Origin: Candidatus Poribacteria bacterium
GTDB taxonomy: Bacteria; Poribacteria; WGA-4E; UBA9662
Reading direction: 5' to 3'
Assembly (NCBI GenBank): GCA_036339735.1
Contig: JAYZAL010000036.1
Coordinates: 1-64,000, forward strand
DNA: 64,000 nt
Made by a program: the position numbers and the translations under genes. This document shows positions 13,207-16,712 of the stretch, piece after piece; within the stretch, counting starts at the first letter, position 1, and the number at the start of each line of letters is the position of its first letter. A model generated the notes under the pieces. It saw only the letters and a list, made by a program, of their open reading frames with translations. It was not told the DNA's origin and searched no databases.

Positions 13207-14001
13207 CTATGGATATTCTCTTCGCTGAAAAGCGAACACCGAGAGACTGAGAAAAAAAATTGAAATCGACAAAATTATTAATACTACTATCCATTTCGAC
13301 ATTGGCTCAGAATCAAACGCTCTTTGATTGAAGGTCCATAGTAGTTTTTTGGAAGAAGAATCACTAGGAAGAACAGCCAATTTCAAATAGTGAATGATAG
13401 AAACTAAGCGGATATTTCCTGATAAGACCAACGTCAGCTTTTCCCAACCAAAAGCAACTAACAATCCCCACAGCACTGAATAACGAAAGCAGACACTTAA
13501 AAAGAGAAAAATACTGCCATAAGCTAGAAGGCCTAAGATGATGACACTTAGATACAGTACCTCCAACCTAAGCCCAGATAAAAATGTTATTTGGGATTTA
13601 GGGTGAGTAGCTATAAAGATGGAAACAAGTAGATGGGAGGTAGCTACTGGTATAGTTGCCCCAACCCAATAGGCCATAAATTTACTCAAGACAATACTCA
13701 TCTTTGAAATAGGTCGCATCAATAAGTAAATAATCGTATTGTTTTCAATTTCATCAGATAAAAGCGTCGTGGACTGAAACAGTGCAACTAAAATGACAAT
13801 GAACATCAGATAGAAAGTAACGGTTGATTCCAACAGTAAAGTGTCAATCACGCTGGCTTTTTGTGGGATAAGACGGACAACAAACATAAAAATAACAGGA
13901 ATAAAGGACAAAAAAGCCAAAACGTATGTTCTACGACTTCTTAGCATCTGCAAAAAAGTTTGTTTGAAAATGACTGGCGAAATCCAAGAAATATTTGACA
14001 T
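13207..14001 (-). CDS. ABC-2 type transporter permease subunit
   Basis: Six TM segments, DEIENNTIIYLLMRPISK...LSKF, C-terminal FQRREY. Confidence 0.8.
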   Translation of the reverse strand: MSNISWISPVIFKQTFLQMLRSRRTYVLAFLSFIPVIFMFVVRLIPQKASVIDTLLLESTVTFYLMFIVILVALFQSTTLLSDEIENNTIIYLLMRPISKMSIVLSKFMAYWVGATIPVATSHLLVSIFIATHPKSQITFLSGLRLEVLYLSVIILGLLAYGSIFLFLSVCFRYSVLWGLLVAFGWEKLTLVLSGNIRLVSIIHYLKLAVLPSDSSSKKLLWTFNQRAFDSEPMSKWIVVLIILSISIFFLSLSVFAFQRREYP

Positions 14002-14015
14002 TATTCCAAAATAAT

Positions 14016-15428
14016 TCAGTTAGTGTAGGGAATGGTTCCTCTCTCATCTACCGTATAACCCCACTGTCGAATGTAGTCCATTCCAGACAGAAAATTGTCT
14101 TTTCGCTTGGCTAGCTTTTGTTCAAGTTTTCGGTTCAACGATTCAGCCAATTGAACCATTTTTTGTGACATTTCTGTAGAAAAAAAGTTATTTTGTTGAT
14201 ATGGGTCATTCAAGTTGTCATACAATAGCCAAGGGCTGTCCAAAGTAACAACATAAGTGTATCTACGAGTTCTTAACCCACGGAATTCTCGTCCAGTTAG
14301 ATGGTTTGGCCCACCATCCAAACCATATCTCCATTGACCAAAAGCATGATAACAAGCTAACAAAGCAGTGCTGTCAGATGGATTCTCAGATTCGGGATTC
14401 CGAAGATACATTGAATAGTCAATTCCTTCAACAGTCTCAGGTATAGGCAGCCCAACTAACCCCAGAAGTGTCGGCATAAAGTCTGGAATATCCATCAATA
14501 CATCAGAAATTTCTCGCCCGACTAATTCACCGTCATTTCTAGAAACCAATTCAGGGTAACGTATCAAACAAGGAATTCGAATTGACTCATCCCAAGGTTT
14601 CTGTTTTTTTATTAGGCCTTGCGAGCCAAGCATATCACCATGATCAGAAGTAAAAATAAAAATTGTGTTTTCAGTTTGGCCTAGTTGATCAATTCGATCC
14701 AATAAGCGACCAAGACAATCATCCAAGGCCGTACAGTGTGCGTAATAACCTGATAAGTCTTGGCGTGCTTGATCAGCTAATGACTCAGGAACATTAGGTC
14801 GAAGCAACACGTCTTCTGGTTTGTACATATCCTGATAGGATTCTGGAGCGGTCTGGTAAGGCGCATGCGGGGGGCCCCAAGACAACATGAGAAAAAACGG
14901 GGTAGTGTCATCATTTTTGGTATTTATATTTTCTGAGATGTAATCGATAGCTGAATTCGTTTGAGCACAAGCATCATAACCATCCCAGTACAATTTTTGG
15001 TCTGAATTGCCATCGTAGTAAGCAGATTGGTTATAGTTGTGTGTGCACTCCAATACTTGCCAGTGATCGAAACCAAGTCTTTGATCTGGTGGAATATAAT
15101 TGCTACGTCCATTTCCATTAACATGCCATTTACCGATGTAAGCGGTTTTATAACCGCCTTGCTTGAAGGCTTGGGCTATGCTCATAGATTGATGGTTCAG
15201 TGGCACATCGTTAACAAAAACACCATGAGACAGTGGGTTTTGGCCTGTCAAAAGAGATGCACGTGCTGGTGAACAAACGGGACAACCCGATACTGCGTGA
15301 GTGAAATTAAGACTCTGTTTAGCCAAACGATCAAGGTTAGGTGTTTGGACTACGGAGTTACCTGCGTAACCAGTGGCCTGTGCCCGCCACTGGTCACCGA
15401 AGACAAAAACAACGTTCGGACGATCCAT
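14016..15428 (-). CDS. Formylglycine-dependent sulfatase
   Basis: RPNVVFVFGDQWR, CSPARASLLTG (CxPxR), GKWH, FTSDHG. No signal peptide. Confidence 0.95.
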   Translation of the reverse strand: MDRPNVVFVFGDQWRAQATGYAGNSVVQTPNLDRLAKQSLNFTHAVSGCPVCSPARASLLTGQNPLSHGVFVNDVPLNHQSMSIAQAFKQGGYKTAYIGKWHVNGNGRSNYIPPDQRLGFDHWQVLECTHNYNQSAYYDGNSDQKLYWDGYDACAQTNSAIDYISENINTKNDDTTPFFLMLSWGPPHAPYQTAPESYQDMYKPEDVLLRPNVPESLADQARQDLSGYYAHCTALDDCLGRLLDRIDQLGQTENTIFIFTSDHGDMLGSQGLIKKQKPWDESIRIPCLIRYPELVSRNDGELVGREISDVLMDIPDFMPTLLGLVGLPIPETVEGIDYSMYLRNPESENPSDSTALLACYHAFGQWRYGLDGGPNHLTGREFRGLRTRRYTYVVTLDSPWLLYDNLNDPYQQNNFFSTEMSQKMVQLAESLNRKLEQKLAKRKDNFLSGMDYIRQWGYTVDERGTIPYTN

Positions 15429-15517
15429 TATTTTTCACCCCAATTTTTTATGCCCATATAAATTAACGCCTGCGTAATACGCGACAAATTACTTTTCCAA
15501 GAAAAACTAGGTTACAC

Positions 15518-15547
15518 TTGACAAAGATTTTGTTTTAAGTGTACGAT
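15518..15547 (+). promoter_or_regulatory. Putative sigma-70 promoter of the small ORF
   Basis: TTGACA-N18-TACGAT. Confidence 0.6.
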
Positions 15548-15583
15548 TTGGACTGGTTTCCGAGGTCCGTGGAAGTACTAAAT

Positions 15584-15823
15584 TTGAGCCTAGAAAAAAT
15601 ACGTTTTAAAGAGGCCATTGAGCATCGCAAGAATGGTCATTTTTGCCGTCACTTTTGGGGGAATATTACCTACTTAGAACTCCTAACAGAGGAGCGACAG
15701 TATCACAAAATCGAGTCTAACGAAATCTACCCTCCCTTTGTTTTAACCGATCAAAGTGATGCCGTTTTATGTACAGCTTGGACCGAAACCTACATTAGTG
15801 GTGAGATATACGGCTGGAATTAG
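15584..15823 (+). CDS. Small protein (79 aa), possibly DUF2829/Tad2-like
   Basis: TTG start after GGAAG, downstream of a promoter. FKEAIEHRKNG..R..W...YLEL and C-terminal SDAVLCTAW resemble the DUF2829 pattern. Confidence 0.5.
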   Translation: MSLEKIRFKEAIEHRKNGHFCRHFWGNITYLELLTEERQYHKIESNEIYPPFVLTDQSDAVLCTAWTETYISGEIYGWN

Positions 15824-15854
15824 GCTAACCTCACCATCCCTTCCGCAATTTTCT

Positions 15855-15884
15855 ATCGTATAGTAAATCTCACAGGTTTGTCAA
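15855..15884 (-). promoter_or_regulatory. Putative convergent (antisense) sigma-70 promoter
   Basis: Minus strand TTGACA-N18-TACGAT pointing back into ORF 15584-15823. Confidence 0.55.
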
Positions 15885-16019
15885 TGGTACTTCCGTAGGT
15901 TTTTGGACAAACACCTAAATGTGATCTTGACAAAGCGTGTCAGTTGCGATACCTTTTAGCTGCATGGCATTTTAAGATTTCAGGCAAGGAAAAGCCAGAA
16001 ACTAGAAAGCAGTAATCTC

Positions 16020-16712
16020 TTGTCAGACTTCAAGTTAGTTGCCAAATTGTGGGCCGAATTTATAGGCTCCATGTTCTTGGTTATGGCATCCATCTCTCCT
16101 GTAATCTTGTTTAACCGAGTACTCGATTCAGGTATTGGAATCTCCGTGTTGGCTGATTCCGTGGGTGTCGCTTGGGTTCTTTTTGCCCTAATCTCCGTCT
16201 TTGGACCAATTAGCGGGGCACATTTCAACCCGGCCGTAAGTTTGAGCTTCGCCTATTCTGGAAGCTTACCATGGAGAAATTTTCCCTATTACGTTTTCGT
16301 TCAGATTGCCGGCGGTGTCACCGGCACATTAGCAACACACTTGATGTTTTACCATCAGGTCGATTCATTGGTAACATTATCCAGGGTTACCAGAAATGGG
16401 GGCTGCTTTCCTGCTGAAGCGTTTGGCACTTTCATCCTGGTTTTCACCATTCAAGCATTAGTTTATCAAAAATCAGATAAAGTCCCGTTGATTGTTAGCC
16501 TGCTGGTGGGTGGGCAGCTGATTTCTACTTCCAGTACCATGTTTGCAAATCCACAGGTAACGATCGCTCGAATGTTCACTTATTCAGCTGCCGGTATCCG
16601 CCCCGTAGACGGATTAGTTTTCATCGTGGTGCAATTTGCTAGTGCCATTGTAGCTACAATAATCTGGCAGTATATGTTCGAAAAAAATAAAATTCTAACT
16701 CCGGATAAATAA
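16020..16712 (+). CDS. MIP/aquaporin family channel
   Basis: AEFIGS, ISGAHFNPAV, second motif FANPQV..AR. Confidence 0.9.
   Translation: MSDFKLVAKLWAEFIGSMFLVMASISPVILFNRVLDSGIGISVLADSVGVAWVLFALISVFGPISGAHFNPAVSLSFAYSGSLPWRNFPYYVFVQIAGGVTGTLATHLMFYHQVDSLVTLSRVTRNGGCFPAEAFGTFILVFTIQALVYQKSDKVPLIVSLLVGGQLISTSSTMFANPQVTIARMFTYSAAGIRPVDGLVFIVVQFASAIVATIIWQYMFEKNKILTPDK

Follow-up and report, generated by a model that had tools for sequence, protein, structure and literature searches.

A window of 64,000 nucleotides, positions 1 to 64,000 of contig JAYZAL010000036.1 of a Candidatus Poribacteria bacterium, is the whole stretch of DNA analyzed here. It contains a small protein gene that stands divergently beside a sulfatase gene and is bracketed by two promoter-like sites, P1 and P2, which face each other. 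A reading made from the sequence only had seen in this gene an antisense-controlled relative of the phage Tad2 (DUF2829) proteins with the architecture of a type I toxin-antitoxin module. Its observations were confirmed in part and its interpretation was supported in part: direct reading of the window returned the same positions for the open reading frame (ORF), for two complementary 11-nucleotide (nt) segments and for two hairpins. The striking claim of that reading, a type I toxin module resembling Tad2, is not borne out. The features on which the analysis turns are the following:

15584..15823, plus strand: small protein gene, from a TTG start codon at 15584 to a TAG stop codon at 15821-15823, 79 amino acids (direct reading and ORF list)
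15518..15547, plus strand: P1, sigma-70-type promoter-like site for the small gene, TTGACA-18-TACGAT, 10/12 in the promoter scan
15855..15884, minus strand: P2, convergent sigma-70-type promoter-like site, TTGACA-18-TACGAT, 10/12, predicted start at about 15848
14016..15428, minus strand: Cys-type sulfatase gene, the divergent neighbor; Pfam Sulfatase, E 8.4e-59, residues 4 to 326

A small gene divergent from a sulfatase gene

The small ORF is part of a 94-residue frame (15539-15823) that is open from a GTG codon at 15539. A six-frame search found the gene, without internal stops, in 4 of 41 related genomes, all of one family, and the orthologous proteins are 82, 50 and 37% identical to it. 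These genomes represent the G000 type (G000 being the genome that carries the window, 4.32 Mb, with 21,179 ORFs profiled), the G001 type (a genus mate), and the G002 and G004 types, i.e., three or four lineages, which limits the power of the conservation comparisons below. Substitutions are in excess at third codon positions, with 8, 5 and 19 at positions 1, 2 and 3 relative to the sequence at metagenome locus L027 and 27, 22 and 42 relative to the G001 type. HMMER, run exhaustively over 1.84 billion cluster representatives, yielded four proteins at E ≤0.001, three of which are true clusters of the family. The fourth, P0005 (1113 residues, matched in six stretches), was rejected as a spurious relative, as the LEQACSRYQEAVQH units of its tetratricopeptide-like repeat mimic the N-terminal motif of the family. 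Scans of genomes and metagenomes added three and eight loci, respectively, all from the lineages already known. Two of the metagenome loci, L027 and L028, provide clean sequence of the G002 lineage; the G002 assembly itself (L002 / L005) has many ambiguous bases that give X in the translations of the small gene and the sulfatase.

No viral relatives of the small protein were found in IMG/VR (0 of 62 candidate stretches) or among 50,697 phage records, and the genes around it in the window are those of the sulfatase, a MIP-family channel and heme proteins, with no phage genes nearby. The orthologues, the codon-position bias and the RNA contigs described below show that this is a genuine, expressed gene. 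It is chromosomal and without phage context, as had been proposed, and its family is tiny and known only from Candidatus Poribacteria (one marine family). The gene is single-copy, and its synteny is kept down to 37% identity. Its product is predicted to be hydrophilic and acidic and to lack a membrane segment, with a grand average of hydropathy (GRAVY) of -0.33 to -0.56 across the family and a top 19-residue hydropathy of 0.59 to 1.28. NCBIfam and PADLOC gave no match; the best PHROGs match was to an unnamed family (E 0.2), and Rfam gave none at E ≤1 for positions 15200-16200. Neighbors in a protein language-model atlas scored 0.85 to 0.87 and are leads only, and the orthologue P0004 had no usable match there. 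On this evidence the protein adds one more orphan small-protein family.

The start codon has an alternative. GTG at 15569 would give 84 residues; the G002-type strains have ATG at this position, as does the strain variant carried by the RNA contig X1 (G>A), and the protein may have that length, with a very short leader after P1, whose predicted start is at about 15554. The G004-type genes have ATG at the position equivalent to TTG 15584.

The small gene is divergent from an orthologous sulfatase gene in G000, G001, G002 and G004, with identities of 91, 80 and 71% between the sulfatases. In G004 this pairing is kept although the other flank of the small gene is occupied by a convergent gene for a repeat protein and not by the MIP gene. 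The domain of the sulfatase starts at residue 4, leaving no room for a signal peptide, and the sequence C52-S-P-A-R56 is invariant across the four orthologues; the enzyme is predicted to be a Cys-type, cytoplasmic, leaderless sulfatase. A multi-pass membrane ORF (13207-14001, minus strand) follows it by 14 nt on the same strand and probably belongs to the same operon. The genome also has at least seven sulfatase paralogues at E ≤1e-50.

Facing promoter-like sites and a putative antisense transcript

The promoter scan lists exactly the two sites that had been read as convergent promoters with identical boxes, plus 15518-15547 and minus 15884-15855. The exact pattern TTGACA-N18-TACGAT occurs four times on both strands of the 4.32 Mb, against about 0.9 from hexamer expectations, and both remaining copies fall within long ORFs; the convergent pair is thus more than a chance occurrence. 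For the broader pattern TTGACA-N17-18-TAnnnT, 168 of 251 sites (67%) fall outside ORFs of at least 120 residues, which make up 85% of the genome, compared with 25% and 32% for control patterns. This distribution points to a genome that uses sigma-70-type promoters, and such plain promoters would be readable directly from Poribacteria genomes.

A third site, P3, precedes the MIP gene, and counterparts of the three sites were read in the other lineages:

15927..15955, plus strand: P3, GTGATCTTGACAAAG...TACCTT, i.e., TTGACA-17-TACCTT, before the MIP gene (direct reading)
16020..16712, plus strand: MIP-family channel gene, Pfam MIP, E 9e-25
Orthologous P1 sites: TTGACA-18-TAGCAT in G001, TTGACA-17-TAACAT in G004
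Orthologous P2 sites: TTGAAA-17-TATGAT in G001; kept in the G002-type strains; none in G004
Orthologous P3 sites: TTGACA-17-TACATT (10/12) in G001; a different downstream neighbor in G004

All three form islands of identity to G001 (0.69 for P1, 0.72 for P2 and 0.74 for P3) within flanks at 0.36 to 0.53, the values being 0.36 to 0.43 around P1 and 0.38 to 0.50 around P2. Within the genus, the conservation of P2 in these alignments appears equal to that of P1 and P3, which have evident genes to serve. The MIP gene, whose start codon is TTG in G000 and G001 alike, is not part of the module, and in G004 another gene stands in its place. Two local variants were noted at the promoter-like sites. 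A 9-nt indel (GCAATTTTC-like) at 15845-15853, in the region of the predicted P2 start, is missing from 3 of 3 G002-type sequences, in which the P2 boxes are intact. In G004 a short GC hairpin (TCGGTACCGAAACCGA; L004 1438-1453) directly follows the -10 box of P1. This hairpin could act as a stem-loop at the 5′ end of the small gene mRNA or as a minus-strand terminator-like site before the sulfatase.

The small ORF is covered by metatranscriptome contigs in four of four runs, from four marine studies (15438-15873, 15566-15780, 15588-15793 and 15570-15774). These contigs are unstranded and the libraries may contain DNA, so that starts, ends and strand are not readable from them. The longest, X1 (15438-15873), spans the P1 site itself and hence does not come from P1 alone. 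Over the MIP gene, contigs of the four runs begin at 15971, 15990, 16019 and 16034; the interval 15874-15970 is uncovered by contigs of the four runs, and uncovered parts prove nothing.

We favor, with slightly less than even confidence, a divergent, excludon-like arrangement in which an orphan small gene is overlapped by an antisense transcript from P2 that probably runs into the sulfatase gene. P1 would drive the small gene for a soluble acidic protein of 79 to 84 residues. P2, just past the stop codon of that gene and pointing back, would yield a transcript from about 15848 that lies antisense across the whole small gene and continues into the sulfatase gene as its mRNA or leader. Run-on into the sulfatase is probable because the scan found no terminator-like site on the minus strand between P2 and that gene. 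Expression of the small gene and P2-driven transcription of the sulfatase gene would then oppose each other, by transcriptional interference or by decay of double-stranded RNA. The gene with its conservation and synteny, its occurrence in RNA libraries and the three conserved promoter-like sites are observed; activity of P2, the strand and length of a P2 transcript and any consequence for regulation are inferred. P2 feeding the sulfatase through a long leader had appeared in the sequence-only reading as the alternative that would undo it, and is the reading that we prefer. No antisense ORF of more than 31 residues was found.

The intergenic gap offers few other candidates for transcription of the sulfatase gene. 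At scan level, no promoter serving it was found in the gap of G000, G001 or G004; the sole minus-strand match in the G000 gap (15456-15427, 9/12) overlaps the sulfatase start codon. A proximal site noticed by eye on the minus strand, TTGTCG (15487-15482)-17-TAATTT (15464-15459), was too weak to call, and inspection of the gap by eye showed no match to a sigma-54 motif.

The geometry is that of an excludon, as the two neighbors are divergent and the P2 transcript would overlap the small gene in antisense. In the part of PMC12288877 that we consulted, a divergent excludon is described as a long transcript that is mRNA or leader for one gene and antisense RNA for its neighbor, with maps from Listeria, E. 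coli and S. aureus. The likeness lies in the two divergent genes, in a transcript directed towards one of them that is antisense over the other, and in the mutually exclusive expression expected from that layout (PMC12288877). Unlike in the mapped cases, P2 lies past the stop codon of the small gene and its transcript would overlap that gene in full; moreover, the organism is uncultured, and its transcripts are known from unstranded contigs. If P2 works as proposed, the locus would represent a compact and conserved antisense wiring in an uncultured phylum without known gene regulation.

Several observations weigh against this proposal. All of the RNA evidence consists of the unstranded contigs, with possible carry-over of DNA. 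X1 reaches 15873, 25 nt past the predicted P2 start, so that it is not a pure P2 product. On the sulfatase side, contigs from two studies, without a DNA-run control, both end at 15449, a weak hint that the sulfatase gene has a start of its own near that position. In G004, P2 is absent, the TTGACA there overlapping the stop codon of the neighbor and lacking a -10 box, and the end of the convergent gene lies 43 nt past that of the small ORF. Finally, sulfatase orthologues of another genus, g2 (G003 and G006), are 68% identical and have no small gene upstream, showing that the pairing of the two genes is not obligatory.

Some of these points would suit a P2 that gives only a short cis-antisense RNA, acting by pairing with RNase III-type decay or a translation block and ending before a sulfatase gene that has its own start at about 15449. 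We consider this unlikely. The conservation of P2, the shared contig end at 15449 and the shortness of the ORF contig in three runs (about 15566-15793) are consistent with it, although contigs cannot define RNA ends. Against it, the minus strand shows no terminator-like site, and in three genomes the gap contains no recognizable sigma-70 site that could serve the sulfatase gene.

A somewhat smaller chance is left for a P2 that does not work or has no consequence, the conserved block being a binding site or a 3′-end element of the small gene mRNA and the small gene an independently transcribed orphan. Promoter scans report consensus matches only, the small gene persists in G004 where P2 is missing, and the end of X1, 15873, falls within the P2 spacer, where an inverted repeat (15801-15811/15863-15873) has its foot. 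However, G001 preserves both boxes, -35 and -10, together with their spacing, amid diverged surroundings, and the exact pattern is otherwise near-absent from the genome. By reading of the alignment, moreover, G001 has not retained the inverted repeat, so that the conserved P2 block is not explained by pairing with the coding sequence. Antisense control, as originally proposed, stands to the extent that a facing promoter-like site is conserved in the genus and makes antisense transcription plausible; it does not stand as a type I module.

Long-range pairing and the type I toxin-antitoxin comparison

The type I proposal relied on pairing between the 5′ end of the small gene mRNA and a segment after its stop codon, and on two hairpins:

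15554..15600, plus strand: 5′ arm of the long-range complementarity, including 15570-15580
15849..15915, plus strand: 3′ arm of the long-range complementarity, including 15885-15895 and overlapping the P2 site
15570-15580, plus strand: TGGAAGTACTA segment (direct reading)
15885-15895, plus strand: TGGTACTTCCG segment (direct reading)
15799-15805 / 15830-15836: TGGTGAG / CTCACCA hairpin over the stop codon (direct reading)
15896-15900 / 15913-15917: TAGGT / ACCTA hairpin (direct reading)

The 11-bp helix between 15570-15580 and 15885-15895 exists in this strain, with a duplex energy of -14.4 kcal/mol, and sits within a complementarity of 36 pairs between 15554-15600 and 15824-15925. The latter has an energy of -32.4 kcal/mol, compared with -19.5 ± 3.2 kcal/mol for dinucleotide shuffles, none of 500 being as good. 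Eight of the 36 pairs are G:U, so that the complementarity is meaningful only in the plus-strand RNA. An origin of the arms as a DNA inverted repeat or from a mobile element was rejected, given these G:U pairs and the finding of short repeats only. The whole RNA, 15554-15920, is not unusually stable (z -0.64).

In the relatives, the pairing decays. The G002-type sequences have an altered 3′ arm and a preserved 5′ arm, and keep 23 to 24 of the 36 pairs, with 10 of 300 shuffles as good; G001 keeps 19, with 90 of 300 shuffles as good, and in the G004 type the pairing is at the level of chance (172 to 242 of 300). In an alignment of five sequences, 81% of the cells pair and four pairs have changed on both sides, values equaled by 111 to 126 of 500 shuffles. 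The region of the 3′ arm at 15886-15922 is 0.38 identical to G001, no better than background. The long-range pairing is thus beyond chance in this strain, but among the relatives it declines, with covariation no higher than in shuffles, and it does not behave as a selected structure.

The smaller elements fared similarly. GGAAG, taken for the likely Shine-Dalgarno sequence within the 5′ segment, is not enriched upstream of genes (2.0% vs 1.1% inside genes, over 2535 ORFs), whereas AGGA reaches 20.9% vs 3.1%; ribosome-binding sites of this genome do not typically carry GGAAG. Both hairpins are present where they had been placed. The one over the stop codon, at -11.3 kcal/mol, is of modest stability, being equaled by 5 of 300 mononucleotide shuffles, and the TAGGT / ACCTA one, at -3.0 kcal/mol (21 of 300), is weak. 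The 3′ arm lies in the interval left uncovered by the RNA contigs.

The hok/sok system is a type I toxin-antitoxin module whose mRNA folds back from its 5′ to its 3′ end. With such modules the locus shares a convergent promoter-like site in antisense orientation and, in one strain, a long-range pairing of the 5′ end with sequence after the stop codon. Another module of this type is aapA1/IsoA1, whose toxin, AapA1, is described as a 30-residue peptide (PMC5416894). A type I-like module, in which the mRNA would be silenced by 5′-3′ pairing and a cis-antisense RNA would restrain a toxic protein, could draw on the complementarity that outdoes all 500 shuffles, on its strand specificity, on the convergent promoter-like site and on the four pairs maintained through two-sided changes. 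It is nevertheless highly improbable. The product is not a short hydrophobic peptide but a hydrophilic protein of 79 to 84 residues, and the locus is single-copy, vertically inherited and in conserved synteny beside the sulfatase gene rather than patchy or multi-copy. In addition, the fold-back is not conserved, its covariation is matched by shuffles, its 3′ arm is at background conservation and the whole RNA has unremarkable stability.

Resemblance of the small protein to Tad2

The link to DUF2829 is weak. PF11195 (Tad2-like) is the sole Pfam match of the small protein (E 0.0045), at 17.9 bits in G000, and two G002-type sequences, P0002 and L027, score 16.1 and 16.5 bits; all are below the gathering cut-off of 25 bits. 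None of four G001- and G004-type sequences (P0003, P0004, L004 and L032) matched PF11195, and a PF11195 search of the whole G000 genome gave nothing at E ≤1, although its prefilter may have passed over the ORF. We compared the family with 14 DUF2829 proteins, i.e., SPO1 Tad2, 12 phage homologues and one canonical Poribacteria prophage copy. The hhalign score of 17.0 (E 0.017, probability 2.6%) covers the N-terminal 32 columns only; none of 200 shuffles of the columns reached it (mean 10.3, maximum 16.2), nor did the alignment in reverse (7.9). With a profile built from the 14 proteins, the ORF ranks 9th of the 21,179 ORFs of the genome, at E 8.8, and the family profile had no match to PDB chains at E ≤10. 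Among its language-model neighbors, a cluster with a score of 0.85 has PF11195 in 12% of its members, which is a lead only.

As far as described in the consulted part of bioRxiv 10.1101/2023.05.01.538930, Tad2 consists of a helix at the N terminus and, after it, an antiparallel sheet of five strands, and SPO1 Tad2 contacts glyco-cyclic ADP-ribose (gcADPR) mainly through W25, N26, W73 and D79. The small protein, with 79 to 84 residues compared with 89 for SPO1 Tad2 (gp34.65), has an N-terminal pattern, F/L-x-E-A-[IL]-x-x-x-[KR]-x-G ... R-x-x-W, that lines up with helix alpha1 and with the first part of the sheet. In the hhalign alignments, the counterpart of W25 is the invariant W of R-x-x-W, and that of N26 is G or S. 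In a global alignment W73 fits only the penultimate W, after which too little sequence remains to match S76, T78 or D79; the alternative counterpart, W66, is not conserved, being C or V in G001 and G004. The family thus retains one of the four main contact residues. It also lacks the C-terminal motif of most of the 14 proteins, W-x-x-S-Q-T-D-x-L-x-x-D-W, and ends in ...S-G-E-[IT]-Y-G-W-[NS].

Structure prediction recovered no Tad2 fold. Two AlphaFold2 models were three-helix structures of low confidence, too poor to decide the fold (predicted local distance difference test 54.8 and 59.3; predicted template modeling score 0.27 and 0.48), and Foldseek searches with these low-confidence models against PDB and BFVD gave nothing at E ≤0.001. 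The best VIA-align wide match (Z 6.0) was unrelated; Tad2 was not among the matches listed, which is no evidence against the fold.

Judging from these comparisons, the small protein lacks the Tad2 ligand pocket, and any kinship with phage Tad2 would be very distant. That it is a genuine, if remote, homologue of DUF2829 proteins is conceivable, though we lean against it. A Tad2-like sponge encoded by the host and binding gcADPR or cyclic nucleotides, as put forward in the sequence-only reading, is very improbable. The exclusive Pfam match, the hhalign score above all shuffles, the PF11195-containing neighbor cluster and the invariant W of R-x-x-W are in line with such a sponge. The subthreshold Pfam scores, which do not extend to the four G001- and G004-type sequences, are at odds with it, as are the low hhalign probability over 32 columns, the poor rank with the DUF2829 profile and the lack of PDB matches. 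So are the replacement of N26, the missing equivalents of S76/T78 and D79, the absent S-Q-T-D...D-W tail and the helical, low-confidence models. Unlike that of Tad2, moreover, the gene is inherited vertically as part of the chromosome and had no relative in the viral collections. Only marginally better placed is a domesticated, stripped-down DUF2829 domain that would have lost the gcADPR pocket, would work with the cytoplasmic sulfatase or sense a ligand for it, and would alternate with it through the excludon-like wiring; were this true, it would be the first cellular, non-defense role for the Tad2 fold. The resemblance to Tad2 matters only if structure confirms it, in which case the DUF2829 fold would extend beyond phage counter-defense.

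A DUF2829 gene that scores above the cut-off was found in one Poribacteria-phylum genome, G087, out of 176 (L008 1498-1686, minus strand; also L009), in a prophage. This copy lies in a 44.6-kb record that IMG/VR holds as a complete virus; Poribacteria thus do meet canonical Tad2-like phage genes.

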